A stretch of 32,000 nucleotides of DNA, taken from Candidatus Omnitrophota bacterium (GTDB lineage: Bacteria; Omnitrophota; Gorgyraeia; Zapsychrales; JANLHA01). The notes beneath the pieces were generated by a model. That model saw only the letters and a list, made by a program, of their open reading frames with translations. It was not told the origin of the DNA and ran no database searches. A program made the position numbers and the translations under genes. The DNA is taken from positions 3,328,634 through 3,360,633 of the forward strand of contig OY759724.1 of the NCBI GenBank assembly GCA_963662715.1, written 5' to 3'. Each line of letters starts with the position of its first letter. The first letter of the stretch is position 1. Shown in pieces: positions 1 through 32,000 of the stretch.

Positions 1-68
1 ACTGTCCCCGGAGAAAGGACCAGCACCTGCCAAAGAACAAAGATATGAATCATTTTTCTGCGCACCAT
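1..68 (-). CDS. N-terminal fragment (22 codons, MVRRKMIHIFVLWQVLVLSPGT...) of an unidentified ORF that runs off the window start
   Basis: ATG at 68-66 (minus) is preceded by AAGGA at 78-74 with a 5-nt spacer, 17 nt after the stop of the GspF-like gene. The N-terminus is basic and then hydrophobic (signal-peptide or TM-like). It is too short to classify. Confidence 0.2.
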   Translation of the reverse strand, partial: MVRRKMIHIFVLWQVLVLSPGT

Positions 69-85
69 AATCGTCCTTGGAAATT

Positions 86-1297: not shown

Positions 1298-1331
1298 AAG
1301 CTTCCCTGATCATGATGTCCGGTGAAATTGT

Positions 1332-3548
1332 TTAACTTTCCTGGTTTTGCTGCTTCCCTTTTTTCCGTTGTTCCCGGACAAAATGATTAATATGAACACG
1401 GTCGGCGCTCGAAATATCCAGATAATAAACGACAATGTTAAACATCGCTGAAAGGTTGTCGTCTTCAACACGGCAAACCCGGGCCAGACAATTGACCCGT
1501 TTTTCCGCTCCCGGCAATTGGATGCGAAGGTCAACGATAGCCCCGACCGGGAGCGTGTAGCCGGAGACGAAACGCAGTCCTCCGGCACTGATGTCGCGCG
1601 TCACAGAAGCGTGCTCGACCTGGTCATAAAACAATTTCAACGGGTTTTTCGGATCCTGCCGTACGATCGAGTACCGTATGCTGACCTTCTCCTCGGCCCG
1701 GTCATAAGCGCGTGAATTGTAGTCATCCTTGACCGAAAGGATTTCCTTGTTGATGACCCGGACATTTTCCGGGTTTTTGTTTAACCCTGTGACGATCAGG
1801 CCCTGCGACAAAGCCGGAGCTTCTTCACCTTGACTGAGATCATCTTTCACCGTAACGTTAATGACTTCGCCGGGGGTCGTAATCCCGGCCAGGACTTTTT
1901 GCCACCCATTCTGTCTCAATGTCGTCATACCCCGTTTAACGGCCAGCCGTTTAATCTGATCTGCACGCTGTTTCTCCAGGATGGCGCCACGGATATCTTC
2001 ATCAATAACCAGAATCTCATAAAGAGCCGTGCGGCCGTAATACCCTGTCTGATGACAGAAATCGCATCCCCGTCCCTGAAAAATTTTTATGTGACGCGGG
2101 TCCGTGATCCCCAGGGAAGCAGCCATCTCCTGCCTAATCTCCTGGGGCTGACTCAAATCTTCTTTTTTGCATTGAGGACAGATCGTCCGCACAAGCCGCT
2201 GCGCTATAAAAGCCTCTATGCTGGAAGACACCAGAAACGGCTCCATCCCCATTTCTATAAGCCGGGTGATTCCGCTGGAGGCATCATTGGTATGCAGGGT
2301 CGAAAAAACCAAATGTCCTGTTAAAGCCGTACGGATCGCGATTTCCGCTGTTTCAAGATCCCTGATCTCCCCGACCATGATAATGTCCGGATCATGCCGC
2401 AAAACACTTCTCAATCCCGTGGCAAAATCGAACTCCACCCGGGGATTGATTTGAATTTGCGTAATCCCCTCCATCTCATATTCCAGGGGATCCTCCAGTG
2501 TCACGATCTTTCTGTCGGGGGAATTGATCTCATGAAGACAGGCATAAAGCGTCGTTGTTTTTCCGCTGCCGGTCGGGCCGGTCACTAAAATGATCCCGTG
2601 CGGCCGTTTGACCAGATCACGGAAGACATCCAGGTTTTTCTGATCCAGCCCCAATTTCTCAAGGCTTAACAACATAACATTCGTGGGAAGAATACGGATC
2701 ACCATACTTTCGCCATGAGAAGTCGGGATCGTGGAAATACGAAGATCCAGGGTCTGTTCTTTGGTTCTAACGACCGCGCTGCCGTCCTGAGGAAGCCGTT
2801 TTTCAACAATACTGAGGTTGGCGATGATTTTAATTCTGGATATGATGGACGGCAGAAAACCTTTAACCGCCTGAGGAATATTGGCGTCGAGCAAACGTCC
2901 GTCTATGCGGTAACGCACCCGGACAATATTCCGGTAAGGCTCAATATGAATATCGGTCGCCCTTTTCTTATGGGCTTCCAGGAGAATCTGGTTAACTAAT
3001 CTTGTTATCGTAACTTCATCGGCACCTTCGTCCAGATCCTCAACCGCTGTTTCCGCCTGTCTTGAAGGGGCCGATTCCCTGGACAACCGCTCAAGAGTAT
3101 CAGCCGCCAGGCCGTAATATTTATTCAGAGCGTTCATAACATCAGCTTCCCTGGCAAGAACGATTTTCGGCTCCAAGGACAAATGCACCCGGATTTCATC
3201 CTGGGATTTGACATTCAGAGGATTGGCACAAGCCAAAAGAACGCTTTTGTCCGTTATCTTAACGGGCATAAACTTGTAATACCAGGCGAACCGGACAGGA
3301 ACCCGGGTCAGGACCGTTTGATCGACAGGATAACTCTGCAGGGAAATAATTTCAAGCTGATACAAATCCGAAAGAATCTGCAAAAGCTGATCTTCGGGAA
3401 GGATTTTCTTCTCCACGAGAATATCCTTAAGAGAAACAGGGGAATTCTCAACAGCGCGCAGCTGTTCTTCAACAAGCGCCCCTGTTAACAGGCCTCTTTT
3501 AACAAGTTCTTTAGCGAGTATTTTATCGGATTGCTTCATCGGGAACAC
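1332..3548 (-). CDS. GspE/PilB-family secretion/pilus-assembly ATPase with N-terminal T2SSE_N-like domain and C-terminal PilZ domain
   Basis: 738 aa. Walker A is LVTGPTGSGKTTT (about 2550-2583). Walker B/Asp box is DPDIIMVGEIRD and the His box is TGHLVFSTLHTN. The tetracysteine motif is CPQC...CDFC. The N-terminal helical repeats LAKELVKRGLLTGALVEEQL / LKDILVEKKILPEDQLLQIL are typical of T2SSE_N. The ORF-track start at 3548 is a GTG; an ATG at 3539 (MKQSDK...) is an alternative start. Confidence 0.9.
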   Translation of the reverse strand: MFPMKQSDKILAKELVKRGLLTGALVEEQLRAVENSPVSLKDILVEKKILPEDQLLQILSDLYQLEIISLQSYPVDQTVLTRVPVRFAWYYKFMPVKITDKSVLLACANPLNVKSQDEIRVHLSLEPKIVLAREADVMNALNKYYGLAADTLERLSRESAPSRQAETAVEDLDEGADEVTITRLVNQILLEAHKKRATDIHIEPYRNIVRVRYRIDGRLLDANIPQAVKGFLPSIISRIKIIANLSIVEKRLPQDGSAVVRTKEQTLDLRISTIPTSHGESMVIRILPTNVMLLSLEKLGLDQKNLDVFRDLVKRPHGIILVTGPTGSGKTTTLYACLHEINSPDRKIVTLEDPLEYEMEGITQIQINPRVEFDFATGLRSVLRHDPDIIMVGEIRDLETAEIAIRTALTGHLVFSTLHTNDASSGITRLIEMGMEPFLVSSSIEAFIAQRLVRTICPQCKKEDLSQPQEIRQEMAASLGITDPRHIKIFQGRGCDFCHQTGYYGRTALYEILVIDEDIRGAILEKQRADQIKRLAVKRGMTTLRQNGWQKVLAGITTPGEVINVTVKDDLSQGEEAPALSQGLIVTGLNKNPENVRVINKEILSVKDDYNSRAYDRAEEKVSIRYSIVRQDPKNPLKLFYDQVEHASVTRDISAGGLRFVSGYTLPVGAIVDLRIQLPGAEKRVNCLARVCRVEDDNLSAMFNIVVYYLDISSADRVHINHFVREQRKKGKQQNQES
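1368..1730 (-). other. PilZ-domain coding segment (putative c-di-GMP receptor) forming the C-terminal ~120 aa of the GspE/PilB ATPase
   Basis: RxxxR motif RAYDR (aa 613-617, codon R613 at 1710-1712) is followed 34 residues later by DxSxxG as DISAGG, then beta-rich LRFVSGYTLPVGAIVDLRIQL...ARVCRVE. This spacing and these motifs are canonical for PilZ. Confidence 0.7.
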
Positions 3549-3581
3549 CCCGGTAACCGTCTCTGCAGCAAGACGCCGTTA

Positions 3582-5982
<2,401 letters not shown>

Positions 5983-5994
5983 AGCCTTTCATCC

Positions 5995-6753
5995 TTAACT
6001 CAGGATGCCCTTCTCCAATTTCTCTTTAACCTGTTCCCCGGTGTTATTCAGGGCGCTTTTTAAAGTGCCGTCCAGCGACAGGGTTCCGAATTTGCACAAA
6101 ATACCTCCGATAATACTTTGGTCAACTTTTTTGTCGATCTGCATATCCCTGTTAAGCCGCTTATTTAAAATATCGCGCAATCTCTGTTCCAGTTTTTCAT
6201 CCAAAGGACGGGCCGTCATGATTTCGATGGTGGTCACATCGTCAGCGATCATCCCGGTATCGACATTTTCCATATCATTGAAGAATTCCGAAATAATCGT
6301 CTCATCCAGGGCTTCAAAAGAACGGCTCGTGAAGAATTCTTCCATGAGCAGAATACAGTAATCAATGGCTTGCAGCTTCATCTCCTTTTCCAGTTCCAGC
6401 CGGACCTGGTCTTTCGTGTGATGGGCTTTATTGATAATTTCTTCCGCGTCCTGGCGCGCCTTTTGAATAATCTTCTCCCTTTCCTGGTTCGCTTTCTCCT
6501 CCGCGTCGTCTTTCATCTTAGCCACCAGGGCATCGGCTTCCTTTCTGCGCGTGACCAACTCTTCATTCGCTTCCTTGATTTTGGCATTCAGTTCGGTTTG
6601 TTTATTCCGGACGTCTTCCGTCTCTTTGTTCAGCCGGCCGACAGCCGTTTCCGTGTGCCTTGACATATAACGGATAAAAAAGAACCCCAGCACCCCGGTA
6701 AAAATCATCCCAAAAATCAATGCTTTAATAAGTAACATGGTTGCTTCACCCAT
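5995..6753 (-). CDS. Peripheral-stalk protein: b-like N-terminal TM helix plus charged coiled coil, fused to a delta/OSCP-like C-terminal domain
   Basis: 252 aa. The N-terminal TM is LLIKALIFGMIFTGVLGFFFI, followed by ~110 aa of K/E-rich helix (b-like). The C-terminal IEIMTARPLDEKLEQRLRDILNKRLNRDMQIDKKVDQSIIGGILCKFGTLSLDGTLKSAL matches the conserved delta C-terminal pattern (...V.SA..L....I...L.K.......D.SLIGG....G....DGS....L). Confidence 0.65.
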   Translation of the reverse strand: MGEATMLLIKALIFGMIFTGVLGFFFIRYMSRHTETAVGRLNKETEDVRNKQTELNAKIKEANEELVTRRKEADALVAKMKDDAEEKANQEREKIIQKARQDAEEIINKAHHTKDQVRLELEKEMKLQAIDYCILLMEEFFTSRSFEALDETIISEFFNDMENVDTGMIADDVTTIEIMTARPLDEKLEQRLRDILNKRLNRDMQIDKKVDQSIIGGILCKFGTLSLDGTLKSALNNTGEQVKEKLEKGILS

Positions 6754-6770
6754 AACAATCTCCTCATTGT

Positions 6771-6998
6771 TTATTCAGAAACTAATGCTTTAAAAAATGT
6801 TAATATCAGCGCAAAGGAAACGGTTTCAACAATAACTAGCTTCAGTAAAATACTCATTTGTATAGCCGGTGTCTTGCTGGGGGCCCGGCCTAACCGGTTA
6901 ATAAGCTGCACCCCCACCCAAGCGGCGCCGATACAGGGGATAATAATCAAAATCCAGAAAATGATAATAAAAACCAGGGCAACATTCGCCATAAACAC
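6771..6998 (-). CDS. Divergent F-type ATPase c-subunit paralog (c')
   Basis: 75 aa forming a two-TM hairpin. The polar loop is RLGRAPSK (R-x-P, like the canonical R-Q/N-P). There is a membrane-embedded carboxylate in TM2 (LVIVETVSFALIL). It lies directly downstream of the other c-like gene. Confidence 0.6.
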   Translation of the reverse strand: MFMANVALVFIIIFWILIIIPCIGAAWVGVQLINRLGRAPSKTPAIQMSILLKLVIVETVSFALILTFFKALVSE

Positions 6999-7016
6999 CT
7001 CTTCCGATAATGACTC

Positions 7017-7238
7017 TTACTTTCCAAAAAGCTGAAAAATAACTAATATCGCGATAACGGAAATGGCTTCGACAAAAATAAGCATGACGACCATTCCCAT
7101 AAAAATTTTCGATGCCGCTGAAGGATTCCGGCTCAAAGCCTTAATAACAGCATACCCTAAAACAGCGATAACAATGGAAGGGCCCAAGACAGCGATCAAC
7201 ATAATGGAGACAATTAATAAGGTTTCTGCCCACTGCAC
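7017..7238 (-). CDS. atpE: F-type ATPase c subunit (rotor ring proteolipid)
   Basis: 73 aa forming a two-TM hairpin. The loop is ALSRNPSAAS (R-N-P) and the conserved TM2 carboxylate lies in MLIFVEAISVIAIL. GTG start with AAGGAG 7 nt upstream. Confidence 0.75.
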   Translation of the reverse strand: MQWAETLLIVSIMLIAVLGPSIVIAVLGYAVIKALSRNPSAASKIFMGMVVMLIFVEAISVIAILVIFQLFGK

Positions 7239-7308
7239 AACACAACTCCTTTTTCATCATTGTATTCAGAAAGCACGGATAGTCCGGCTATAACATGTTT
7301 CCTCTCGG

Positions 7309-7641
7309 CTAAAGGTGATGGACTTCATCATCCGAATCCGTAAGGATATCTTGATCTTTCTTCCCTTTCTTTGGACGGAAGCGTTCAATTTCTTCAACAA
7401 GCACAATGCAATCGTTGGCGAAAAACTTAAGAATTCCGAACTTGATAGGCACGGCTTCCCGCCAATTGATGATGATATTACTTTGATTTAAGATTCCCAG
7501 GACCGGATAATGATACGGCAATAATTCGTATTCTCCGGTGTCCCCGGAGAAAAAAACACTTTCAACCTCTCCCTGGTAAAGCAGAGCCTCGGGTGTCATA
7601 ATGGAAATTTTAAATGTCGGACGGTAAGTCGTGCCGGCCAT
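7309..7641 (-). CDS. atpC: F-type ATPase epsilon-like subunit: N-terminal beta-sandwich only, with the C-terminal helical hairpin replaced by a short charged tail
   Basis: 110 aa. ISIMTPEALLYQGEVESVFFSGDTGEYELLPYHYPVLGIL matches the epsilon N-domain pattern (..V.TPE......V..V.....GE.GILP.H.P....L). The last ~25 aa (RPKKGKKDQDILTDSDDEVHHL) are charged and too short for the canonical two-helix domain. Confidence 0.65.
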   Translation of the reverse strand: MAGTTYRPTFKISIMTPEALLYQGEVESVFFSGDTGEYELLPYHYPVLGILNQSNIIINWREAVPIKFGILKFFANDCIVLVEEIERFRPKKGKKDQDILTDSDDEVHHL

Positions 7642-7658
7642 AAGCCCAAGGAATCTCC

Positions 7659-9203: not shown

Positions 9204-9240
9204 TTTGATATCCCTTGTGAATATTCATACTTGATAAAAA

Positions 9241-9270: not shown

Positions 9271-9306
9271 AACAAATTCATTATTTTTCCGTCGACTAAT
9301 CATCAT

Positions 9307-10689: not shown

Positions 10690-10721
10690 TTCCTCAGTAT
10701 CAATTTCGTTTATAATAAAAA

Positions 10722-22700: not shown

Positions 22701-25700
22701 GTTAATCCCCGCATCACTCAATACATCAATATCTTCCCAGTTGATCCCCGCCGTTGTTAGCTCCCCTAAATCAACCCAATTAACTCCTGCCCGGCTCAAC
22801 TCGTCTATTCCCGACCAATTGATCCCTGCATCACTTAACACATCTATGTCCGCCCAGTTGATCCCCGCTTCACTCATATCATTCACACTCACCCAATTGA
22901 TTCCCATATCACTCATCACATTTATATCCTGCCAGTTGATCCCCGTATCACTTAACACATCGATATCCGTCCAGTTGATCCCTGCTTCGCTCAGAACATC
23001 CAAATCTAACCAGTTAACCCCTGCATCACTTAACACATCTATGTCCGCCCAGTTGATCCCCGCTTCACTCATCACATCTACGTCCAACCAGTTTATCCCC
23101 GCGTCACTTAAATCATTCACACTCACCCAGTTGATCCCCGCATCACTCAATACATCTACGTCCTGCCAGTTGATCCCCGCTTCACTTAACACATCCAAAT
23201 CTAACCAGTTAACCCCCGCATCACTCAATACATCTACGTCCTGCCAGTTGATCCCCGCGTTCGTCATATCACTCATATTTACCCAGTTCATCCCCGCATC
23301 ACTCATCACATCCACATCCAGCCAATTGATCCCCGCGTCACTCATATCATTCACACTCACCCAGTTGATCCCCATATCACTCATCACATTTATATCCTGC
23401 CAGTTGATCCCCGTATCTGAGAGTACATCCAAGTCCACCCAGTTGATTCCCGCATCCGATAATACATCTAAATCCAACCAATTAACCCCTGCATCACTCA
23501 GCGCATCCACATCCTGCCAGTTAATCCCCGCATCACTTAACACATCTATGTCCGCCCAGTTGATTCCCGCGTCACTCATATCATTCACACTCACCCAGTT
23601 GATCCCCGCCTCACTCAGTACATTTATATCCTCCCAATTAATCCCCGTATCACTTAACACATCGATATCCGCCCAGTTGATTCCCGCGTCACTTAACTCC
23701 CCGATATTCGCCCAGTTAATTCCTTCTGTACTCATCTCACTGATATTCGCCCAGTTCACCCCGCTTGACGACATCTCCCCAATATTCAACCAGTTCACTC
23801 CTGTCGTACTCATCTCACTGACATTCGCCCAGTTCACCCCGCTTGACGACATCTCCCCGATATTCAACCAGTTGATCCCCGTATCCGACATCTCACTGAT
23901 ATTCGCCCAGTTCACCCCACTCGTGGATAACTCCCCGATATTCAACCAGTTCACTCCTGTCGTACTCATTTCACTGACATTCGTCCAGTTGATCCCCGCA
24001 TCACTCAATACATCCACATCCTGCCAGTTGATCCCCGCGTCACTCATATCATTCACACTCACCCAGTTGATCCCCGCATCACTCAATACATTTATATCCT
24101 CCCAGTTAATCCCCGTATCACTTAACACATCTATATCCGCCCAGTTGATTCCCGCGTCACTTAATTCCCCGATACTCTCCCAGTTAATTCCTGTCGTACT
24201 CATTTCACTAATATTAATCCAATTAATCCCATTTGATGACATCTCCCCGATATTCGCCCAATTGATACCCGTGTCCGACATCTCGCTGATATTCTCCCAG
24301 TTCACCCCACTCGTGGATAACTCCCCGATATTCAACCAGTTCACTCCTGTCGTACTCATCTCGCTGATATTCTCCCAATTTACCCCACTCGTGGATAACT
24401 CCCCGATATTCAACCAGTTCACTCCTGTCGTACTCATTTCACTGACATTCGTCCAGTTGATCCCCACATCACTCATCACATCTATGTCCTGCCAATTGAT
24501 CCCCGCTTCACTTAAATCATTCACACTCACCCAATTAATTCCTGCATCTGACAAAACGTCCACATCCAGCCAGTTTATCCCCGTATCACTTAACACATCC
24601 AGGTCCACCCAATTAATTCCTGCATCTGACAGAACGTCCACATCCAGCCAGTTGATCCCCGCATTCGTCATATCACTCATACTCACCCAGTTCATCCCTG
24701 CATCACTCATCACATCAATATCCGCCCAGTTGATCCCCGCATCACTTAAATCATTCACACTCACCCAATTGATTCCCGCGTCACTTAATACATCAATATC
24801 ATCCCAGTTGATCCCCGTATCACTTAACACATCGATATCCAGCCAGTTGATCCCTGCTTCACTCAATACTTCTACGTCCAGCCAGTTGATCCCCGCATTC
24901 GTCATATCACTCATACTCACCCAGTTCATCCCCGCATCACTCATCACATCGATGTCCTGCCAATTAACCCCCGTATCACTTAACACATCGATATCCGTCC
25001 AGTTAATTCCTGCTTCACTCAATGCATTAATATCCGTCCAGTTGATCCCCGTATCACTTAACACATCCAGGTCCACCCAGTTAATTCCTGCATCACTCAG
25101 TATATCTACGTCCAGCCAGTTGATCCCCGCATTCGTCATATCACTCATACTCACCCAGTTCATCCCTGCATCACTCATCACATCAATATCCGTCCAGTTG
25201 ATCCCCGCGTCACTTAGATCATTCACACTCACCCAATTAATTCCTGCATCACTTAACACATCGATGTCCTGCCAGTTTATCCCCGTATCACTCAGCACAT
25301 CTATGTCCGCCCAGTTGATTCCCGCGTCACTCAATACTTCTACGTCCAGCCAGTTTATCCCCGCATTCGTCATATCACCCATGCTCACCCAGTTCATCCC
25401 CGCGTCACTCATCACATCGATATCCTGCCAGTTTATCCCCGTATCACTTAACACATCGATATCCGCCCAGTTGATCCCCGCGTCACTTAACACATCCAGA
25501 TCCAGCCAATTAATCCCCGTATCACTTAATACATCCAAATCCAACCAGTTAACCCCTGCATCACTCATCACATCCACATCCAGCCAGTTGATCCCCGCGT
25601 CACTTAACACATCTATATCCGCCCAGTTGATCCCTGCTTCACTCATCACATCGATGTCCTGCCAGTTGATCCCTGCGTCACTTAATTCCCCAATACTTTC

Positions 25701-28700
25701 CCAATTGATCCCCGCCGTTGTCATCTCCCCGATATTTTCCCAATTAATCCCTGATCTACTTAACTCACTGATATTCTCCCAGTTGATCCCCGTATCCGAC
25801 ATTTCACTGATGTTTTCCCAGTTAATCCCCGTGTCCGACATCTCGCTGATATTCTCCCAGTTCACTCCGCTTGATGACATCTCCCCGATATTCGCCCAGT
25901 TAATCCCCGTACTGCTCATCTCACTGATATTCTCCCAGTTCACCCCGCTTGATGACATCTCCCCGATATTCAACCAGTTGATCCCCGTACTGCTCATCTC
26001 CCCAATATTTAACCAGTTGATCCCTCGGTCACTTAACACATCTATATCCAGCCAGTTGATCCCTGCATTCGTCATATCACTCATACTCACCCAATTCATC
26101 CCTGCATCACTCATCACATCGATGTCCTCCCAGTTAATCCCCGCATCACTCAATACATCAATATCTTCCCAGTTGATCCCCGCCGTTGTTAGCTCCCCTA
26201 AATCAACCCAATTAACTCCTGCCCGGCTCAACTCGTCTATTCCCGACCAATTGATCCCTGCATCACTTAACACATCTATGTCCGCCCAGTTGATCCCCGC
26301 TTCACTCATATCATTCACACTCACCCAATTGATTCCCATATCACTCATCACATTTATATCCTGCCAGTTGATCCCCGTATCACTTAACACATCGATATCC
26401 GTCCAGTTGATCCCTGCTTCGCTCAGAACATCCAAATCTAACCAGTTAACCCCTGCATCACTTAACACATCTATGTCCGCCCAGTTGATCCCCGCTTCAC
26501 TCATCACATCTACGTCCAACCAGTTTATCCCCGCGTCACTTAAATCATTCACACTCACCCAGTTGATCCCCGCATCACTCAATACATCTACGTCCTGCCA
26601 GTTGATCCCCGCTTCACTTAACACATCCAAATCTAACCAGTTAACCCCCGCATCACTCAATACATCTACGTCCTGCCAGTTGATCCCCGCGTTCGTCATA
26701 TCACTCATATTTACCCAGTTCATCCCCGCATCACTCATCACATCCACATCCAGCCAATTGATCCCCGCGTCACTCATATCATTCACACTCACCCAGTTGA
26801 TCCCCATATCACTCATCACATTTATATCCTGCCAGTTGATCCCCGTATCTGAGAGTACATCCAAGTCCACCCAGTTGATTCCCGCATCCGATAATACATC
26901 TAAATCCAACCAATTAACCCCTGCATCACTCAGCGCATCCACATCCTGCCAGTTAATCCCCGCATCACTTAACACATCTATGTCCGCCCAGTTGATTCCC
27001 GCGTCACTCATATCATTCACACTCACCCAGTTGATCCCCGCCTCACTCAGTACATTTATATCCTCCCAATTAATCCCCGTATCACTTAACACATCGATAT
27101 CCGCCCAGTTGATTCCCGCGTCACTTAACTCCCCGATATTCGCCCAGTTAATTCCTTCTGTACTCATCTCACTGATATTCGCCCAGTTCACCCCGCTTGA
27201 CGACATCTCCCCAATATTCAACCAGTTCACTCCTGTCGTACTCATCTCACTGACATTCGCCCAGTTCACCCCGCTTGACGACATCTCCCCGATATTCAAC
27301 CAGTTGATCCCCGTATCCGACATCTCACTGATATTCGCCCAGTTCACCCCACTCGTGGATAACTCCCCGATATTCAACCAGTTCACTCCTGTCGTACTCA
27401 TTTCACTGACATTCGTCCAGTTGATCCCCGCATCACTCAATACATCCACATCCTGCCAGTTGATCCCCGCGTCACTCATATCATTCACACTCACCCAGTT
27501 GATCCCCGCATCACTCAATACATTTATATCCTCCCAGTTAATCCCCGTATCACTTAACACATCTATATCCGCCCAGTTGATTCCCGCGTCACTTAATTCC
27601 CCGATACTCTCCCAGTTAATTCCTGTCGTACTCATTTCACTAATATTAATCCAATTAATCCCATTTGATGACATCTCCCCGATATTCGCCCAATTGATAC
27701 CCGTGTCCGACATCTCGCTGATATTCTCCCAGTTCACCCCACTCGTGGATAACTCCCCGATATTCAACCAGTTCACTCCTGTCGTACTCATCTCGCTGAT
27801 ATTCTCCCAATTTACCCCACTCGTGGATAACTCCCCGATATTCAACCAGTTCACTCCTGTCGTACTCATTTCACTGACATTCGTCCAGTTGATCCCCACA
27901 TCACTCATCACATCTATGTCCTGCCAATTGATCCCCGCTTCACTTAAATCATTCACACTCACCCAATTAATTCCTGCATCTGACAAAACGTCCACATCCA
28001 GCCAGTTTATCCCCGTATCACTTAACACATCCAGGTCCACCCAATTAATTCCTGCATCTGACAGAACGTCCACATCCAGCCAGTTGATCCCCGCATTCGT
28101 CATATCACTCATACTCACCCAGTTCATCCCTGCATCACTCATCACATCAATATCCGCCCAGTTGATCCCCGCATCACTTAAATCATTCACACTCACCCAA
28201 TTGATTCCCGCGTCACTTAATACATCAATATCATCCCAGTTGATCCCCGTATCACTTAACACATCGATATCCAGCCAGTTGATCCCTGCTTCACTCAATA
28301 CTTCTACGTCCAGCCAGTTGATCCCCGCATTCGTCATATCACTCATACTCACCCAGTTCATCCCCGCATCACTCATCACATCGATGTCCTGCCAATTAAC
28401 CCCCGTATCACTTAACACATCGATATCCGTCCAGTTAATTCCTGCTTCACTCAATGCATTAATATCCGTCCAGTTGATCCCCGTATCACTTAACACATCC
28501 AGGTCCACCCAGTTAATTCCTGCATCACTCAGTATATCTACGTCCAGCCAGTTGATCCCCGCATTCGTCATATCACTCATACTCACCCAGTTCATCCCTG
28601 CATCACTCATCACATCAATATCCGTCCAGTTGATCCCCGCGTCACTTAGATCATTCACACTCACCCAATTAATTCCTGCATCACTTAACACATCGATGTC

Positions 28701-31700
28701 CTGCCAGTTTATCCCCGTATCACTCAGCACATCTATGTCCGCCCAGTTGATTCCCGCGTCACTCAATACTTCTACGTCCAGCCAGTTTATCCCCGCATTC
28801 GTCATATCACCCATGCTCACCCAGTTCATCCCCGCGTCACTCATCACATCGATATCCTGCCAGTTTATCCCCGTATCACTTAACACATCGATATCCGCCC
28901 AGTTGATCCCCGCGTCACTTAACACATCCAGATCCAGCCAATTAATCCCCGTATCACTTAATACATCCAAATCCAACCAGTTAACCCCTGCATCACTCAT
29001 CACATCCACATCCAGCCAGTTGATCCCCGCGTCACTTAACACATCTATATCCGCCCAGTTGATCCCTGCTTCACTCATCACATCGATGTCCTGCCAGTTG
29101 ATCCCTGCGTCACTTAATTCCCCAATACTTTCCCAATTGATCCCCGCCGTTGTCATCTCCCCGATATTTTCCCAATTAATCCCTGATCTACTTAACTCAC
29201 TGATATTCTCCCAGTTGATCCCCGTATCCGACATTTCACTGATGTTTTCCCAGTTAATCCCCGTGTCCGACATCTCGCTGATATTCTCCCAGTTCACTCC
29301 GCTTGATGACATCTCCCCGATATTCGCCCAGTTAATCCCCGTACTGCTCATCTCACTGATATTCTCCCAGTTCACCCCGCTTGATGACATCTCCCCGATA
29401 TTCAACCAGTTGATCCCCGTACTGCTCATCTCCCCAATATTTAACCAGTTGATCCCTCGGTCACTTAACACATCTATATCCAGCCAGTTGATCCCTGCAT
29501 TCGTCATATCACTCATACTCACCCAATTCATCCCTGCATCACTCATCACATCGATGTCCTCCCAGTTAATCCCCGCATCACTCAATACATCAATATCTTC
29601 CCAGTTGATCCCCGCCGTTGTTAGCTCCCCTAAATCAACCCAATTAACTCCTGCCCGGCTCAACTCGTCTATTCCCGACCAATTGATCCCTGCATCACTT
29701 AACACATCTATGTCCGCCCAGTTGATCCCCGCTTCACTCATATCATTCACACTCACCCAATTGATTCCCATATCACTCATCACATTTATATCCTGCCAGT
29801 TGATCCCCGTATCACTTAACACATCGATATCCGTCCAGTTGATCCCTGCTTCGCTCAGAACATCCAAATCTAACCAGTTAACCCCTGCATCACTTAACAC
29901 ATCTATGTCCGCCCAGTTGATCCCCGCTTCACTCATCACATCTACGTCCAACCAGTTTATCCCCGCGTCACTTAAATCATTCACACTCACCCAGTTGATC
30001 CCCGCATCACTGAATACATCTACGTCCTGCCAGTTGATCCCCGCTTCACTTAACACATCCAAATCTAACCAGTTAACCCCCGCATCACTCAATACATCTA
30101 CGTCCTGCCAGTTGATCCCCGCGTTCGTCATATCACTCATATTTACCCAGTTCATCCCCGCATCACTCATCACATCCACATCCAGCCAATTGATCCCCGC
30201 GTCACTCATATCATTCACACTCACCCAGTTGATCCCCATATCACTCATCACATTTATATCCTGCCAGTTGATCCCCGTATCTGAGAGTACATCCAAGTCC
30301 ACCCAGTTGATTCCCGCATCCGATAATACATCTAAATCCAACCAATTAACCCCTGCATCACTCAGCGCATCCACATCCTGCCAGTTAATCCCCGCATCAC
30401 TTAACACATCTATGTCCGCCCAGTTGATTCCCGCGTCACTCATATCATTCACACTCACCCAGTTGATCCCCGCCTCACTCAGTACATTTATATCCTCCCA
30501 ATTAATCCCCGTATCACTTAACACATCGATATCCGCCCAGTTGATTCCCGCGTCACTTAACTCCCCGATATTCGCCCAGTTAATTCCTTCTGTACTCATC
30601 TCACTGATATTCGCCCAGTTCACCCCGCTTGACGACATCTCCCCAATATTCAACCAGTTCACTCCTGTCGTACTCATCTCACTGACATTCGCCCAGTTCA
30701 CCCCGCTTGACGACATCTCCCCGATATTCAACCAGTTGATCCCCGTATCCGACATCTCACTGATATTCGCCCAGTTCACCCCACTCGTGGATAACTCCCC
30801 GATATTCAACCAGTTCACTCCTGTCGTACTCATTTCACTGACATTCGTCCAGTTGATCCCCGCATCACTCAATACATCCACATCCTGCCAGTTGATCCCC
30901 GCGTCACTCATATCATTCACACTCACCCAGTTGATCCCCGCATCACTCAATACATTTATATCCTCCCAGTTAATCCCCGTATCACTTAACACATCTATAT
31001 CCGCCCAGTTGATTCCCGCGTCACTTAATTCCCCGATACTCTCCCAGTTAATTCCTGTCGTACTCATTTCACTAATATTAATCCAATTAATCCCATTTGA
31101 TGACATCTCCCCGATATTCGCCCAATTGATACCCGCATCACTTAAATCATTCACACTCACCCAATTGATACCCGCATCTGACAGAACATCTAAATCCACC
31201 CAGTTGATCCCCGTATCACTTAACACATCGATATCCAGCCAGTTAATCCCTGCATTACTCAGCACATCCACATCCAACCAGTTAATTCCCACGTTCGTCA
31301 TATCACTCATACTTACCCAGTTCATCCCCGCATCACTCATCACATCTATATCCGTCCAGTTGATCCCCGCATCACTTAAATCATTCACACTCACCCAATT
31401 AATTCCCGCATCTGACAGAACATCTAAATCCACCCAGTTGATCCCCGTATCACTTATCACATCGATGTCCTGCCAGTTGATCCCTGCTTCACTCAATACT
31501 TCTACGTCCAGCCAGTTGATCCCCGCATTCGTCATATCACTCATACTCACCCAGTTCATCCCTGCATCACTCATCACATCGATGTCCTGCCAGTTGATCC
31601 CTGCATCACTCATATCATTCACACTCACCCAATTGATTCCCGCGTCACTCAGAACATCAATATCATCCCAGTTGATCCCTGTATCACTTAACACACCCAC

Positions 31701-32000
31701 ATCCAGCCAGTTGATCCCTGCTTCACTCAATACTTCTACGTCCAGCCAGTTGATCCCCGCATTCGTCATATCACTCATACTCACCCAGTTCATCCCCGCA
31801 TCACTCATCACATCGATGTCCTGCCAATTAACCCCCGTATCACTTAACACATCGATATCCGTCCAGTTAATTCCTGCTTCACTCAATGCATTAATATCCG
31901 TCCAGTTGATCCCCGTATCACTTAACACATCCAGGTCCACCCAGTTAATTCCTGCATCACTCAGTATATCTACGTCTAGCCAGTTGATCCCCGCATTCGT
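10722..32000 (-). CDS. Giant acidic 13-residue-repeat protein (3' portion; the gene continues beyond the window's high-coordinate edge)
   Basis: A single open frame covers 7,092 codons plus a stop at 10722-10724. The frame stays open to position 32000, and the sequence there is still in register with the repeat. The track's 'M' at 31940 is therefore an internal GTG (Val), not the start. Repeat units differ mostly at synonymous positions, which supports real coding. No recognisable Pfam-type domain from memory. Confidence 0.9.
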   Translation of the reverse strand, partial: TNAGINWLDVDILSDAGINWVDLDVLSDTGINWTDINALSEAGINWTDIDVLSDTGVNWQDIDVMSDAGMNWVSMSDMTNAGINWLDVEVLSEAGINWLDVGVLSDTGINWDDIDVLSDAGINWVSVNDMSDAGINWQDIDVMSDAGMNWVSMSDMTNAGINWLDVEVLSEAGINWQDIDVISDTGINWVDLDVLSDAGINWVSVNDLSDAGINWTDIDVMSDAGMNWVSMSDMTNVGINWLDVDVLSNAGINWLDIDVLSDTGINWVDLDVLSDAGINWVSVNDLSDAGINWANIGEMSSNGINWINISEMSTTGINWESIGELSDAGINWADIDVLSDTGINWEDINVLSDAGINWVSVNDMSDAGINWQDVDVLSDAGINWTNVSEMSTTGVNWLNIGELSTSGVNWANISEMSDTGINWLNIGEMSSSGVNWANVSEMSTTGVNWLNIGEMSSSGVNWANISEMSTEGINWANIGELSDAGINWADIDVLSDTGINWEDINVLSEAGINWVSVNDMSDAGINWADIDVLSDAGINWQDVDALSDAGVNWLDLDVLSDAGINWVDLDVLSDTGINWQDINVMSDMGINWVSVNDMSDAGINWLDVDVMSDAGMNWVNMSDMTNAGINWQDVDVLSDAGVNWLDLDVLSEAGINWQDVDVFSDAGINWVSVNDLSDAGINWLDVDVMSEAGINWADIDVLSDAGVNWLDLDVLSEAGINWTDIDVLSDTGINWQDINVMSDMGINWVSVNDMSEAGINWADIDVLSDAGINWSGIDELSRAGVNWVDLGELTTAGINWEDIDVLSDAGINWEDIDVMSDAGMNWVSMSDMTNAGINWLDIDVLSDRGINWLNIGEMSSTGINWLNIGEMSSSGVNWENISEMSSTGINWANIGEMSSSGVNWENISEMSDTGINWENISEMSDTGINWENISELSRSGINWENIGEMTTAGINWESIGELSDAGINWQDIDVMSEAGINWADIDVLSDAGINWLDVDVMSDAGVNWLDLDVLSDTGINWLDLDVLSDAGINWADIDVLSDTGINWQDIDVMSDAGMNWVSMGDMTNAGINWLDVEVLSDAGINWADIDVLSDTGINWQDIDVLSDAGINWVSVNDLSDAGINWTDIDVMSDAGMNWVSMSDMTNAGINWLDVDILSDAGINWVDLDVLSDTGINWTDINALSEAGINWTDIDVLSDTGVNWQDIDVMSDAGMNWVSMSDMTNAGINWLDVEVLSEAGINWLDIDVLSDTGINWDDIDVLSDAGINWVSVNDLSDAGINWADIDVMSDAGMNWVSMSDMTNAGINWLDVDVLSDAGINWVDLDVLSDTGINWLDVDVLSDAGINWVSVNDLSEAGINWQDIDVMSDVGINWTNVSEMSTTGVNWLNIGELSTSGVNWENISEMSTTGVNWLNIGELSTSGVNWENISEMSDTGINWANIGEMSSNGINWINISEMSTTGINWESIGELSDAGINWADIDVLSDTGINWEDINVLSDAGINWVSVNDMSDAGINWQDVDVLSDAGINWTNVSEMSTTGVNWLNIGELSTSGVNWANISEMSDTGINWLNIGEMSSSGVNWANVSEMSTTGVNWLNIGEMSSSGVNWANISEMSTEGINWANIGELSDAGINWADIDVLSDTGINWEDINVLSEAGINWVSVNDMSDAGINWADIDVLSDAGINWQDVDALSDAGVNWLDLDVLSDAGINWVDLDVLSDTGINWQDINVMSDMGINWVSVNDMSDAGINWLDVDVMSDAGMNWVNMSDMTNAGINWQDVDVLSDAGVNWLDLDVLSEAGINWQDVDVLSDAGINWVSVNDLSDAGINWLDVDVMSEAGINWADIDVLSDAGVNWLDLDVLSEAGINWTDIDVLSDTGINWQDINVMSDMGINWVSVNDMSEAGINWADIDVLSDAGINWSGIDELSRAGVNWVDLGELTTAGINWEDIDVLSDAGINWEDIDVMSDAGMNWVSMSDMTNAGINWLDIDVLSDRGINWLNIGEMSSTGINWLNIGEMSSSGVNWENISEMSSTGINWANIGEMSSSGVNWENISEMSDTGINWENISEMSDTGINWENISELSRSGINWENIGEMTTAGINWESIGELSDAGINWQDIDVMSEAGINWADIDVLSDAGINWLDVDVMSDAGVNWLDLDVLSDTGINWLDLDVLSDAGINWADIDVLSDTGINWQDIDVMSDAGMNWVSMGDMTNAGINWLDVEVLSDAGINWADIDVLSDTGINWQDIDVLSDAGINWVSVNDLSDAGINWTDIDVMSDAGMNWVSMSDMTNAGINWLDVDILSDAGINWVDLDVLSDTGINWTDINALSEAGINWTDIDVLSDTGVNWQDIDVMSDAGMNWVSMSDMTNAGINWLDVEVLSEAGINWLDIDVLSDTGINWDDIDVLSDAGINWVSVNDLSDAGINWADIDVMSDAGMNWVSMSDMTNAGINWLDVDVLSDAGINWVDLDVLSDTGINWLDVDVLSDAGINWVSVNDLSEAGINWQDIDVMSDVGINWTNVSEMSTTGVNWLNIGELSTSGVNWENISEMSTTGVNWLNIGELSTSGVNWENISEMSDTGINWANIGEMSSNGINWINISEMSTTGINWESIGELSDAGINWADIDVLSDTGINWEDINVLSDAGINWVSVNDMSDAGINWQDVDVLSDAGINWTNVSEMSTTGVNWLNIGELSTSGVNWANISEMSDTGINWLNIGEMSSSGVNWANVSEMSTTGVNWLNIGEMSSSGVNWANISEMSTEGINWANIGELSDAGINWADIDVLSDTGINWEDINVLSEAGINWVSVNDMSDAGINWADIDVLSDAGINWQDVDALSDAGVNWLDLDVLSDAGINWVDLDVLSDTGINWQDINVMSDMGINWVSVNDMSDAGINWLDVDVMSDAGMNWVNMSDMTNAGINWQDVDVLSDAGVNWLDLDVLSEAGINWQDVDVLSDAGINWVSVNDLSDAGINWLDVDVMSEAGINWADIDVLSDAGVNWLDLDVLSEAGINWTDIDVLSDTGINWQDINVMSDMGINWVSVNDMSEAGINWADIDVLSDAGINWSGIDELSRAGVNWVDLGELTTAGINWEDIDVLSDAGINWEDIDVMSDAGMNWVSMSDMTNAGINWLDIDVLSDRGINWLNIGEMSSTGINWLNIGEMSSSGVNWENISEMSSTGINWANISELSDTGINWENISEMSDTGINWENISEMSDTGINWENISELSRSGINWQNIGQLSEAGINWMDIDVLSDTGINWQDINVMSDMGINWVSVNDMSDAGINWLDIDVMSDTGINWVEMNELTRSGINWSDLGVFTRAGINWTNIGDMSEAGINWNDIDVLSDTGINWVSMNDLSDAGINWLDIDVLSDAGINWLDIDVLSDTGVNWRDLGVLADAGINWVSVNDLSDAGINWDDIDVMSDRGINWTNISEMSTTGINWANVGEMSSRGVNWVNISEMSSTGINWANIGEMSSSGVNWENISELSDTGINWENISEMSTTGVNWANIGEMTTQGINWLNIGEMTEAGVNWTDIDVLSDAGINWLDVDVLSDAGINWADFDILSDAGINWLDVDVLSDTGINWVSVSDMSDAGINWLDIDVMSDAGINWLDVDVLSDTGINWQDLGVLSDAGINWVSVNDLSEAGINWQDIDVMSDRGINWTNISDMSATGINWVNIGEMTSSGVNWSNISELTTTGINWVNIGEMSSSGVNWENISEMSTTGVNWVNIGEMSSSGVNWENISEMSTGGINWLNIGELTETGINWLDIDVMSDAGINWLDIDVMSDAGINWLDIDVLSDTGINWQDINVMSDMGINWVNIGDMSATGINWVNIGEMTSSGVNWSNISELTTTGINWVNIGEMSSSGVNWENISEMSDTGINWENISELSDTGINWENISEMSDTGINWENISELSDTGINWMSIAELSDAGVNWQDINVMSDMGINWVSVNDMSEAGINWLDIDVMSDTGINWIGIDELSSSGVNWVDLGELTTAGINWKDLDVLTDTGINWLDIDVMSDAGINWVSVNDLSDAGINWLDVDVLSDTGINWTNMNDMSAAGINWTNIGELSSSGVNWENISEMSSTGINWENISELSDTGINWENISEMSDTGINWENISELSDTGINWENISEMSDTGINWENISELSDTGINWMSIAELSDAGVNWQDINVMSDMGINWVSVNDMSDAGINWLDIDVMSDTGINWIGIDELSSSGVNWVDLGELTTAGINWKDLDVMTETGINWLDIDVMSDAGINWVSVNDLSDAGINWLDVDVLSDTGINWTNMNDMSVAGINWTNIGELSSSGVNWENISEMSSTGINWENISELSDTGINWENISEMSDTGINWENISEMSDTGINWENISEMSSTGINWENISELSDTGINWMSIAELSEAGINWQDINVMSDMGINWVSVNDMSDAGINWLDIDVMSDTGINWVEMNELTRSGINWSDLGVFTRAGINWTNIGDMSEAGINWNDIDVLSDTGINWVSMNDLSDAGINWLDIDVLSDAGINWLDIDVLSDTGVNWRDLGVLADAGINWVSVNDLSDAGINWDDIDVMSDRGINWTNISEMSTTGINWANVGEMSSRGVNWVNISEMSSTGINWANIGEMSSSGVNWENISELSDTGINWENISEMSTTGVNWANIGEMTTQGINWLNIGEMTEAGVNWTDIDVLSDAGINWLDVDVLSDAGINWADFDILSDAGINWLDVDVLSDTGINWVSVSDMSDAGINWLDIDVMSDAGINWLDVDVLSDTGINWQDLGVLSDAGINWVSVNDLSEAGINWQDIDVMSDRGINWTNISDMSATGINWVNIGEMTSSGVNWSNISELTTTGINWVNIGEMSSSGVNWENISEMSTTGVNWVNIGEMSSSGVNWENISEMSTGGINWLNIGELTETGINWLDIDVMSDAGINWLDIDVMSDAGINWLDIDVLSDTGINWQDINVMSDMGINWVNIGDMSATGINWVNIGEMTSSGVNWSNISELTTTGINWVNIGEMSSSGVNWENISEMSDTGINWENISELSDTGINWENISEMSDTGINWENISELSDTGINWMSIAELSDAGVNWQDINVMSDMGINWVSVNDMSEAGINWLDIDVMSDTGINWIGIDELSSSGVNWVDLGELTTAGINWKDLDVLTDTGINWLDIDVMSDAGINWVSVNDLSDAGINWLDVDVLSDTGINWTNMNDMSAAGINWTNIGELSSSGVNWENISEMSSTGINWENISELSDTGINWENISEMSDTGINWENISELSDTGINWENISEMSDTGINWENISELSDTGINWMSIAELSDAGVNWQDINVMSDMGINWVSVNDMSDAGINWLDIDVMSDTGINWIGIDELSSSGVNWVDLGELTTAGINWKDLDVMTETGINWLDIDVMSDAGINWVSVNDLSDAGINWLDVDVLSDTGINWTNMNDMSVAGINWTNIGELSSSGVNWENISEMSSTGINWENISELSDTGINWENISEMSDTGINWENISEMSDTGINWENISEMSSTGINWENISELSDTGINWMSIAELSEAGINWQDINVMSDMGINWVSVNDMSDAGINWLDIDVMSDTGINWENISEMSSTGINWENISELSDTGINWENISEMSDTGINWENISELSDTGINWENISEMSDTGINWENISELSDTGINWENISEMSTTGINWVNIGELTTAGINWTSIGDMSESGINWSDIDVMSDKGINWTNVYDMSAAGINWVNIGELSSSGVNWENISEMSTTGINWENISELSDTGINWENISEMSDTGINWENISELSDTGINWENISEMSTTGINWANVGEMSSRGVNWVNISEMSSTGINWANIGEMSSSGVNWENISELSDTGINWENISEMSTTGVNWANIGEMTTQGINWLNIGEMTEAGVNWTDIDVLSDAGINWLDVDVLSDAGINWADFDILSDAGINWLDVDVLSDTGINWVSVSDMSDAGINWLDIDVMSDAGINWLDVDVLSDTGINWQDLGVLSDAGINWVSVNDLSEAGINWQDIDVMSDRGINWTNISDMSATGINWVNIGEMTSSGVNWSNISELTTTGINWVNIGEMSSSGVNWENISELSDTGINWQSISELSDTGINWENISEMSDTGINWTSIAELSDAGVNWQDINVMSDAGINWLDIDVLSDAGINWLDIDVLSDTGINWQDINVMSDMGINWVNIGDMSATGINWVNIGEMTSSGVNWSNISELTTTGINWVNIGEMSSSGVNWENISEMSDTGINWENISELSDTGINWENISEMSDTGINWENISELSDTGINWTSIAELSDAGVNWQDINVLSDMGINWVSVNDMSEAGINWQDINVMSDTGINWSHLGLMSTSGINWLDIDVLSDAGINWKDLDVLSEAGINWLDIDVMSSAAVNWYNIEELTSSGINWNDISSMSETGINWLSINEMSDAGINWIDLDVLSSQQINWTNISELSDSGVNWLSIDEMSSSNINWTNISEMSTQGINWSDIGRMSDIGINWNNINELSTTGINWTNIGELANAGINWESINDMSDAGVNWLDIGIMSGFGINWKDIDVLSDAGINWADIDVLSDSGVNWSSINMLSDAGINWLDIEVMSDVGINWQDLEVMTSRGINWTSIDLMSSTGINWDSIDSLSEAGINWDNVNEMSASGINWTNLGVLSSSGINWYDISTLTLAGINWEDMQTLTTSGVNWTSINDLTRAGINWNDMNSLSRAGVNWQDVGVMASAGVNWSSIGVLSGSGVNWLDIDVMSDAGINWQDLAVMSSAAVNWTDMSSMTNVAVNWLDLTEMTGAGVNWVDLGITSTAGINWSDLSAMTSANINWSDIAYLADNAQTLVANVASILTTVTTLNNNIGDPADTAADGTLFGLLNGLDVTALTTAIESLQDLDVTTLNDNITSLTTLIGTATDTSSADTVFGNLQEIIEYVDTLEVLVGIYEDDESSETVFGELSKLEEIKTNVDSAKSSAGAALTEAQSIRDELGAAGQSPDTYNKLKQLESTLTELKTSMTTISEEQVSANNVASQILSTLTNFVNEAAEALGLGDSDMTVEDLTEEEAGEDEKIYSKLDEINAKLNALKEAIETDEVVVKTWFESAE
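13070..15258 (-). repeat. Mosaic partial copy related to family B (segments align to block B at a 3,666-nt = 94-unit offset)
   Basis: 13375=17041, 13801=17467 and 14581=18247 all give a 3,666-nt offset. The alignment breaks near 13550 and 14621, which indicates unit-level deletion or rearrangement. Confidence 0.7.
15259..22244 (-). repeat. Higher-order repeat family B: 3,432-nt blocks, 2.04 copies (15259-18690, 18691-22122, plus 122 nt), each containing nested 702-nt (18-unit) sub-repeats
   Basis: Exact offsets of 3,432 nt: 15259=18691=22123, 16969=20401, 18661=22093. Nested 702-nt offset: 15392=16094=16796 (ccgcaatactcatccag). Confidence 0.9.
22300..32000 (-). repeat. Higher-order repeat family A: 3,432-nt (88-unit, 1,144-aa) blocks, 2.8 copies in-window (about 22300-25741, 25742-29173, 29174-32000+)
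   Basis: Hand alignment gives an exact 3,432-nt offset: 22489=25921=29353, 28309=31741, 22310=25742. The copies are nearly base-identical. Examples of differences: G at 30012 vs C at 26580 and 23148; one swapped unit near 22441-22470; a replaced patch at 31136-~31520. Confidence 0.9.

Follow-up and report, generated by a model that had tools for sequence, protein, structure and literature searches.

To our knowledge, rotary F-type ATPases are almost always ion-coupled, and the only tested exceptions are the F1-like X0 enzymes of Mycoplasma, whose membrane parts are unrecognisable. The surface MIB-MIP system of Mycoplasma depends on the Type 3 'F1-like X0' ATPase, as mutants have shown (PMC3369863, PMC12994834), and the Type 2 enzyme of Mycoplasma mobile, also termed G1-ATPase, is thought to drive the giant surface proteins Gli349 and Gli521 by ATP hydrolysis. 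For Omnitrophota, a non-respiratory, 'symbiotic' F-type ATPase was described beside type IVa pilus (T4aP) genes in every class, with ATPase and T4aP genes lying within 10 kb of each other in 57 of 66 contigs, and a role in attachment to or motility on host cells was proposed; giant open reading frames (ORFs) were treated as a separate trait in the same work (Seymour 2023, PMC10066038). Furthermore, West-Roberts 2023 and a 2026 Omnitrophota preprint linked giant genes to pilZ and to genes resembling those of type II secretion systems (T2SS) and type IV pili (T4P), leaving the ATPase unmentioned as a flanking element; the preprint gives no counts of the a subunit. The present study deals with a 32,000-nt stretch of an Omnitrophota contig (OY759724.1), hereafter the window, in which the 3' part of a giant gene, the gene of a 460-residue membrane protein (p460), the genes of an F-type ATPase without a recognisable stator subunit a, and the genes of a GspE/GspF pair follow one another on the same strand.

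The Omnitrophota F-ATPase/T4aP kind of locus is thus already known. An initial annotation of the window, drawn from the sequence alone, had stated that no described system unites these components, and this holds only in part: the neighbourhood of F-ATPase and T4aP (PMC10066038) as well as the links between giant genes and T2SS have been published, whereas the strict link to one family of giant proteins, characterised by a G-I/V-N-W repeat, and to p460, the placement of the module between secretin and platform genes, and the anatomy of the enzyme are undescribed in searchable papers.

The window covers the middle of a conserved operon in Omnitrophota, which comprises about 25 genes. Judged from its sequence, this operon unites a giant repeat protein exported by Sec, a T2SS/T4aP-like machine including a secretin, an ATPase tagged with a PilZ domain, p460 and a catalytically intact F-type complex lacking the a subunit. 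Related loci were collected by scanning one genome per GTDB species with the alpha subunit encoded in the window. This yielded 29 family loci, whose alpha subunits are 57-89% identical and which are separated by a gap from two loci at 46-49% and from canonical Firmicutes alphas at 41-44%. The genomes concerned are labelled either Omnitrophota or uncultured Planctomycetales or Lysobacterales, the latter two labels being taken to be binning mis-assignments. All 29 family loci, as far as their contigs extend, share one gene order and one strand between the giant gene and GspF, so that the synteny of giant gene, ATPase and GspEF, whose recurrence in relatives had been put forward as a check by the initial annotation, does indeed recur. 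Moreover, the ORF upstream of p460 in every such locus encodes a protein of in-register 13-residue repeats with the G-I/V-N-W signature. Downstream of GspF, the conserved genes encode a HExxH peptidase, a GspG-like major pseudopilin, a minor pseudopilin, a GspJ-like and a GspK-like protein, a PilM-PilN fusion and a PilO/GspM-like protein, past which unrelated genes follow. Upstream of the complete giant gene, three of three loci (L108-L110) carry genes for a family 2 glycosyltransferase (GT2), a DUF2304 protein, a methyltransferase, a further GT2, an ExeA-like AAA protein, GspC, the secretin and a tetratricopeptide repeat (TPR) protein. Since the secretin-side genes lie upstream and the platform genes downstream, the giant gene, p460 and the ATPase are inserted between the outer-membrane and the inner-membrane halves of the machine. 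This conserved synteny, together with the machine parts that flank the module in relatives, strongly supports the view that the adjacency of giant gene, ATPase and GspEF is functional and not coincidental.

Some loci depart from this arrangement. L108 is devoid of GspE, GspF, the peptidase and the pseudopilins at the locus, while the giant gene, p460, the ATPase, PilZ, PilMN and PilO remain. In this locus (L108:25427-28126), beta is followed by a stand-alone PilZ protein of 206 aa and subsequently by PilMN and PilO/T2SSM, which indicates that PilZ accompanies the ATPase also where GspE is not at the locus. A second variant comprises L033, L034 and L095-L102, with alpha subunits 46-49% identical to that of the window. 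In L033 and L034, it consists of a p460-like gene followed by epsilon, c, b-delta, alpha, gamma, beta, a stand-alone MshEN protein or GspE, and GspF, and adjoins a different large surface protein; the ATPase of this variant is likewise devoid of a. In L033, MshEN is a separate protein of 141 aa ahead of GspE, and a 624-aa membrane protein, which by eye resembles PAS/histidine-kinase sensors, is encoded between gamma and beta (L033:12441-14315). Within the family itself, the PilO-like protein measures 731-761 aa in the closest relatives (L001:20018-21526, L087:11556-13748) and about 190 aa in distant loci, the long form bearing a huge low-complexity tail rich in Gly, Ser, Glu and Gln. The block of GT2, DUF2304, methyltransferase and GT2 genes is located at L108:2979-5732, L109:1671-4545 and L110:417-3157, and an oligosaccharyltransferase of the STT3 type is encoded just past the operon, on the other strand, in L087.

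In the window, 12 consecutive co-directional ORFs occupy the minus strand, to which all coordinates of genes given below refer, with intergenic gaps of 32, 103, 17, 70, 18, 17, 12, 28, 33, 34 and 17 nt. The ORFs and all 11 gaps of the initial annotation were re-derived exactly, and its gene order (giant protein, 460-aa protein, alpha, epsilon, c, c', b-delta, gamma, beta, GspE-PilZ, GspF) holds, the identities from alpha to GspF being in agreement with Pfam and, for c', with hhalign. Its twelfth ORF, listed merely as the next one, is present and can now be named as the start of the conserved HExxH peptidase gene: positions 1-68 encode the beginning, a signal peptide, of a Peptidase_MA_2-like protein, with the ATG 17 nt past the GspF stop codon, and the ortholog directly follows GspF in relatives. 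Likewise, the statement that the window holds no credible opposite-strand or RNA gene was upheld, as scans for tRNA genes and Rfam families gave zero matches in the window and the long plus-strand ORFs are antisense to the repeat array of the giant gene. One stop-free example spans 13015-14850 on the plus strand (611 aa). These long antisense ORFs, which are not genes, and the extreme GC skew of -0.45 to -0.55 across the giant gene (window positions 12000-32000) are both due to the biased composition of the repeats. Terminator-like sites were not found in the intergenic gaps of the window.

The catalytic part of the F-type complex is close to that of ordinary enzymes. Alpha (7659-9203) and beta (3582-5102) are recognised by Pfam and pass the NCBIfam cutoffs of TIGR00962 (atpA) and TIGR01039 (atpD), respectively; in the PDB, both are closest to ordinary bacterial F1, with E-values of about 1e-130 to 1e-140, and they are 41-44% identical to Firmicutes F1. 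The best database matches of beta, as far as they are named, are Omnitrophota proteins at 67-89% identity. The arginine finger of alpha (S[VI]SRVG) is conserved in 30 of 32 family members, while beta, whose catalytic Glu is likewise conserved, retains GER.REG in 28 of 28 and the Walker A motif GGAGCGKT in 26 of 28; in this P-loop, Cys takes the place of the canonical Val. In addition, the C-terminus of alpha is extended by an acidic stretch of about 35 aa, and beta has an acidic, low-complexity extension at its N-terminus, which comprises 47 aa in the window and varies in the family (beta lengths 469-545 aa). Gamma (5131-5982, 283 aa) is divergent, matching Pfam ATP-synt with an E-value of 3e-26 and remaining below the NCBIfam cutoffs.

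The departures from the canonical enzyme all touch regulation or the stator. Alpha is devoid of the N-terminal helix of about 20 residues that binds delta in canonical enzymes: alignments to PDB chains begin at chain residue 22-31, and the TIGR00962 match spans profile positions 23-499. Epsilon (7309-7641) consists of 110 aa, or 81-111 aa across the family, and comprises the beta-sandwich domain only (Pfam ATP-synt_DE_N at residues 10-84; TIGR01216 at profile positions 1-88 of 130), whereas the C-terminal inhibitory helical hairpin is absent. The peripheral stalk is represented by a b-delta fusion (5995-6753, 252 aa; 241-284 aa in the family) that matches Pfam ATP-synt_B and OSCP and is composed of an N-terminal transmembrane helix, a b-like helix at about residues 7-157 and the C-terminal domain of delta at about 170-242. 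The N-terminal domain of delta appears to be lacking, as the length of the protein leaves no room for it and the NCBIfam delta matches cover the C-terminal domain alone. A stand-alone delta/OSCP-like protein of about 125 aa, encoded roughly 8 kb upstream of the giant gene at L109:1297-1671 and L110:1-165, was considered as a source of this missing domain and rejected, since it matches profile positions 72-167, that is, again the C-terminal part; it may constitute a second stalk component. Its gene sits ahead of the glycosyltransferase/methyltransferase block, and the equivalent position in L108 is taken by an EF-hand protein.

The membrane part retains ring subunits. Subunit c (7017-7238, 73 aa; Pfam ATP-synt_C) shows 66-96% identity among family members, an RNP loop that never varies, and a Glu in helix 2 that is kept in about 30 of 32 sequences and lost only in L023, where Ile replaces the carboxylate (c at 8201-8419), and in L034. 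The second c-like ORF of the initial annotation, c' (6771-6998, 75 aa), has no Pfam match and is supported as a divergent c paralogue by hhalign, which aligns it to c over its full length with 97.4% probability (E 1.6e-11) and with the helix-2 Glu in register. It is present in all family loci and features a conserved P-C motif in helix 1; its helix-2 carboxylate is usually Glu, with replacements in L011, L025, L027 and L031 (Gln, Gly, Gly and Phe, respectively). For the a subunit, a hidden Markov model (HMM) was built from 14 canonical loci and applied at a threshold of E<1e-5. It matched 43 of 49 canonical atp loci as a control and found no a subunit in six frames of the window or of 42 related loci, the remainder of the genome not having been searched; the best score among these, E 0.013, fell on an antisense segment of 51 aa. 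The absence of the stator subunit a from the module, as originally annotated, is thereby extended to the related loci. In comparison with a canonical F1Fo enzyme, the catalytic motifs and the carboxylate of the c hairpin are present, whereas a, a full delta with the corresponding alpha helix, and the epsilon hairpin are missing. The enzyme was also compared with the N-ATPases, for which the alt_F1F0 models give 474 bits for alpha (cutoff 750.5), 466 for beta (752) and 37 for b (225); this identity was rejected on these scores as well as on the differing gene order and on the a subunit, which the N-ATPase operon AtpDCQRBEFAG has of its own and which was not found here.

p460 (9307-10689) is always located between the giant gene and alpha, and a single-unit p460-like gene occupies the equivalent position in the second variant. 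It matches neither Pfam nor NCBIfam, and its 89 homologues belong to Omnitrophota as far as they are named. An AlphaFold2 (AF2) model, based on an alignment of 40 sequences and reaching a predicted local distance difference test (pLDDT) score of 85, depicts a type-I membrane protein with a signal peptide, two units each of a beta-sandwich and a helical bundle, a long helix, a C-terminal transmembrane helix and a short cytoplasmic tail; comparison of the model with PDB folds gave nothing significant (best E 0.01). In the transmembrane helix, three residues (W406, F415, F419) are invariant and four more (H423, F424, W427, R430) fully or almost fully conserved. This unusual conservation argues for a specific intramembrane contact rather than a passive anchor.

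The giant gene occupies 10722-32000, corresponding to 7,092 codons in the window, and remains open to base 32000 without an in-frame stop, so that its N-terminus lies outside. Within this part, 525 repeats of 13 aa follow each other in perfect register with zero indels, according to the consensus D-A/T-G-I-N-W-x-D/N-I-D/S-V/E-L/M-S, and N and W are invariant in 524 of 524 units; at the nucleotide level, Tandem Repeats Finder (TRF) reports periods of 39, 78 and 234 nt. A unit of 3,432 nt (88 repeats) recurs in tandem copies that are 100% identical, with 15300-18600 equal to 18732-22032 and, in a second stretch, 22500-27600 equal to 25932-31032. Their identity means that the duplication was very recent or that the assembly is uncertain about the number of copies, so that the true length of the gene may differ. 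The array is followed by some 265 aa of non-repeat sequence (10725-11519), the C-terminal domain, which is acidic, largely helical, marked by TVFGxL motifs and 35-77% identical across family loci. In the family alignment, its tail is near-invariant (KLDEINAKLNALKEAIE..VVVKTWFE), the family ending being ...KLDEINAKLxALKE..VVVKTWFE, and the domain is a candidate for a cell-proximal anchor or recognition domain. The sole Pfam match of the giant protein, Lysostaphin_N, has a 13-residue period of its own and was read as a shared periodicity, not as homology.

Searching 1.84 billion representative proteins by HMMER with 26 repeats as query retrieved both complete members of the giant family and fragments from their N-termini, while a database search with the C-terminal domain returned homologues that are all contig-end fragments. 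The N-terminal fragments and the full-length P0227 reveal the architecture of the family: a Sec signal peptide, a variable head, the repeat array and the conserved C-terminal domain, adding up to a likely cargo of 2,300 to >7,000 aa. The heads range from about 300 to 1,500 aa, look Ig-, FN3- or beta-helix-like by eye, and in some members match Pfam Ig_Rha78A_N and Laminin_G_3. Many members, for instance P0232, P0236, P0240 and P0255, carry a G-G-S-G-x-G motif right after the signal peptide, followed by an Ig-like segment (...VFTTQP...AGQVFSQAPVV...). In L025:1-8655, on a contig of 1.2 Mb, the giant gene is represented by two abutting ORFs with the break at 1636, which may be due to a frameshift or stop codon in the gene or to an error in sequencing. 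The Ser/Thr-rich repeats might be glycosylated. As to their fold, 26 repeats were modelled by AF2 with an alignment of other repeat blocks from the same giant protein, and each repeat was predicted to form one beta strand of 10 residues and a turn of 3 residues. Tentatively, the array may thus be an all-beta rod; assuming 4.8 Å per one or two repeats, the part in the window would measure about 0.13-0.25 µm. The repeat model gave nothing significant against PDB folds, and weak FliF and beta-helix/tailspike rows in the fold searches were not counted as evidence.

The secretion and pilus components are represented in the window by a GspE/PilB-family ATPase (1332-3548), which starts 33 nt after beta and possesses an N-terminal MshEN and a C-terminal PilZ domain next to T2SSE in Pfam, and by a GspF/PilC-family platform protein of the inner membrane (86-1297) with two T2SSF domains. 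Their Pfam matches are strong (T2SSE E 6e-133, T2SSF E 1e-58). In NCBIfam, GspE reaches 572 bits with the GspE model and 552 bits with the PilB model, both under the cutoff, and GspF reaches 340 bits (GspF) and 287 bits (PilC), again under the equivalog cutoffs. The scores below these cutoffs mark the pair as a divergent member of the T2SS/type IV filament family. The MshEN motifs appear degenerate by eye. The PilZ domain (Pfam E 1e-12), noted already in the initial annotation, contains both motifs for cyclic di-GMP (c-di-GMP), RAYDR (RxxxR) and DISAGG ((D/N)xSxxG), which recur in relatives, and is predicted to bind this messenger. Outside the window, the pseudopilins T2SSG/J/K and PilM-PilN are found in L001 and at least 20 loci, T2SSC and Secretin in L108-L110, and PilO/T2SSM_b in relatives as well. 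Of the parts that were to be sought beyond the window edges, the secretin, the pseudopilins and the N-terminus of the giant protein are therefore present in relatives; the prepilin peptidase is not among the genes of the flanks read there and may be encoded at another place in the genome.

We propose that the roughly 25 genes of the operon would build one envelope machine. The giant protein would be exported by Sec, whereupon the pseudopilus machine would thread or push it through the secretin, and it would be displayed as a long fibre, 0.1-0.25 µm or more in length, with the variable head at the distal end and the conserved C-terminus held at the cell. The F-type complex would not be an ATP synthase. 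Instead, it would be the ATP-hydrolysing motor of this machine and would work mechanically on the fibre or the export apparatus, most plausibly via the c/c' ring and p460, a reading that we consider slightly more probable than its negation. The case for hydrolysis draws on the intact catalytic residues, together with an epsilon that has shed its inhibitory C-terminus, a missing a subunit and the lost crown contact of alpha with delta. Hydrolysis of ATP would turn gamma, epsilon and the c/c' ring, and this rotation would be relayed to the periplasm, most plausibly by the conserved transmembrane helix and the periplasmic domains of p460; c-di-GMP would gate the system via PilZ on GspE. By analogy, the Mycoplasma F1-like X0 enzymes support such a role as non-bioenergetic precedents.

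Several points weigh against this proposal. None of the family loci (L005-L032, L035) has a c and a c' that both lack the helix-2 carboxylate, a pattern suggestive of continued selection for one or more carboxylates per c/c' ring; such retention would be unexpected if ion binding were irrelevant, and it is compatible with a stator partner that escaped recognition or an a subunit encoded elsewhere. Alpha and beta still score as canonical atpA and atpD. The contact between p460 and the c-ring is purely what we infer, and the passage of a protein of >7,000 aa through a T2SS is hard to picture. Moreover, neither a prepilin peptidase (GspO/PilD) nor PilT is encoded in any locus within the flanks read, and the fold model of the repeats is weak, the best of five models having a pLDDT of 70 and the other four 32-38.

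A more specific and, in our estimation, rather doubtful form of the mechanical motor would have the c/c' ring operate without an ion path as a pure transmitter of torque. Type-I membrane proteins sit inside the c-rings of V-ATPases, and in a comparable manner the transmembrane helix of p460 may be lodged in or against the ring, its periplasmic domains gripping the C-terminus of the giant protein, so that the cell could twist, reel in or drill a fibre of 0.1-0.25 µm or longer. If so, the operon would encode a new kind of ATP-driven rotary appendage with variable binding or enzymatic heads at its tip, with which ultra-small Omnitrophota could seize or attack host cells.

As an alternative to a motor acting on the fibre, the complex might energise export in the manner of FliI, FliH and FliJ. 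These proteins are homologous to F1 alpha/beta, b-delta and gamma, respectively, and act at the export gate, not in bioenergetics. F1 and b-delta would then dock at the platform and assist in unfolding, feeding or gating during the secretion of the giant protein or of pseudopilins, while the ring would serve as an anchor and no torque would reach the finished fibre. In every locus, the ATPase genes have the cargo gene on one side and GspE/F on the other, which fits this scheme, as do the intact catalytic sites of F1, the need of a giant protein for sustained, processive export, and the 252-aa b-delta fusion, whose layout we take to be of the FliH type. Nevertheless, we regard it as unlikely. 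The Sec signal peptide implies that SecA/SecYEG already serves the inner membrane, c, one of the best conserved proteins of the locus at 66-96% identity, is more conserved than an anchor should need, and p460, strictly linked and predicted to be mostly periplasmic, is left unexplained. A FliI or type III secretion identity of the catalytic subunits themselves was rejected, as alpha and beta give 519-534 bits with the F1 models, far over the 180-188 bits for FliI.

The retained carboxylates bear on a further explanation, according to which the enzyme would still be coupled to H+ or Na+, with a stator that is either a distant atpB product or unrecognised, and, being co-transcribed with the T2SS-like genes, would provide secretion with membrane potential or ATP on the spot. 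The Glu of c in about 30 of 32 loci and the invariant RNP loop are in line with this, as is the passing of the canonical NCBIfam cutoffs by alpha and beta; furthermore, T2SS secretion reportedly needs proton-motive force. However, no a subunit was detected within about 10 kb in the 42 loci or in the window, while canonical operons carry a beside c. Alpha is without its N-terminal helix and epsilon without its C-terminal domain, of delta only the C-terminal domain is left, L023 has a c without the carboxylate, and many Omnitrophota have a separate V/A-type ATPase, most being without a recognisable complete F1Fo. One genome in the supplement of Seymour 2023 (PMC10066038) lists only the alpha and beta orthology terms (KOs) together with V-type subunits, which fits an enzyme devoid of a, as a single anecdote. 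On balance, ion coupling seems improbable to us. Finally, that a housekeeping ATP synthase operon has come to lie by coincidence between a giant gene and a pilus operon is effectively excluded by synteny and extremely improbable: alpha and beta do share 41-44% identity with Firmicutes F1 and pass the atpA and atpD models, but all 29 loci, including those with an alpha of only 57% identity, agree in order and strand, the second variant has equivalent partners, the gaps of 12-103 nt contain no terminator-like sites, and no a subunit was found in the loci searched.

The mechanical motor reading remains the one that we favour. Under this reading, the Omnitrophota module would be of interest as an evolutionary intermediate, which has kept a true c-ring and a b-delta stalk and shed a, and which can be read subunit by subunit. 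It may thus show a route by which a rotary ATPase is re-used for mechanical work at the cell surface. In addition, giant ORFs, T4P/T2SS-like genes and an odd ATPase, each taken on its own to indicate predation or symbiosis in earlier work on Omnitrophota, are here assembled in one operon.

Among the described systems, the locus of Seymour 2023 is the closest: the window shares with it the origin from Omnitrophota, to which its best matches belong, and an F-type ATPase close to T4aP/T2SS-like genes, GspE of the window starting 33 nt after beta. The placement of its alpha outside the respiratory clade was judged by the gap in identity between the family and canonical alphas. The text and the searchable supplements of the paper contain no report of the absence of a, of c/c', of the b-delta fusion, of p460, of a fixed giant neighbour or of the placement of the module. 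A literature search for an a-less F-ATPase beside T4P outside Omnitrophota gave nothing relevant.

The Mycoplasma Type 3 system resembles the window in that an extra F-type ATPase is encoded in an operon with surface proteins that depend on it, and in that its alpha is devoid of the N-terminal delta-binding helix. One of its partner proteins is laid out like p460, in that a signal peptide is followed by two globular domains outside the cell and by transmembrane helices at the C-terminus, although no sequence match between p460 and the X0 partner was obtained in NCBIfam. In contrast, the Type 3 cluster comprises seven genes, its X0 part consists of a 12-helix membrane protein and the partner protein just named, and it has no recognisable c, b or delta, whereas the window keeps c, c' and b-delta; alpha of the window fails the MSC_0619 model (304 vs 520 bits) and beta the MSC_0618 model (392 vs 570), both subunits scoring higher with canonical atpA/atpD, and Mycoplasma has no T2SS, unlike the system of the window. 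With regard to the G1-ATPase of Mycoplasma mobile, beta of the window is closer to canonical F1 (1e-139) than to G1-ATPase beta (9io5; 1e-99), alpha fails MMOB1660 (398 vs 600 bits) and beta fails MMOB1670 (412 vs 850). The giant proteins of Mycoplasma mobile are unrelated to that of the window, and the secretin encoded in relatives implies an outer membrane, which likewise sets the locus apart from Mycoplasma mobile.

Unlike FliI-FliH-FliJ, the module of the window has distinct alpha and beta subunits, a true epsilon and a c-ring, with FliI models scoring about one third of atpA/atpD. The extended locus shares GspE, GspF, GspG/J/K-like pseudopilins, PilM-PilN, a PilO/GspM-like protein, GspC and the secretin with T2SS and type IV filaments. 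We know of no T2SS or T4P operon that includes a rotary ATPase. Further differences from these systems are the PilZ domain at the C-terminus of GspE, the HExxH peptidase encoded after GspF and a likely cargo that, at 2,300 to >7,000 aa, is far larger than known T2SS substrates.

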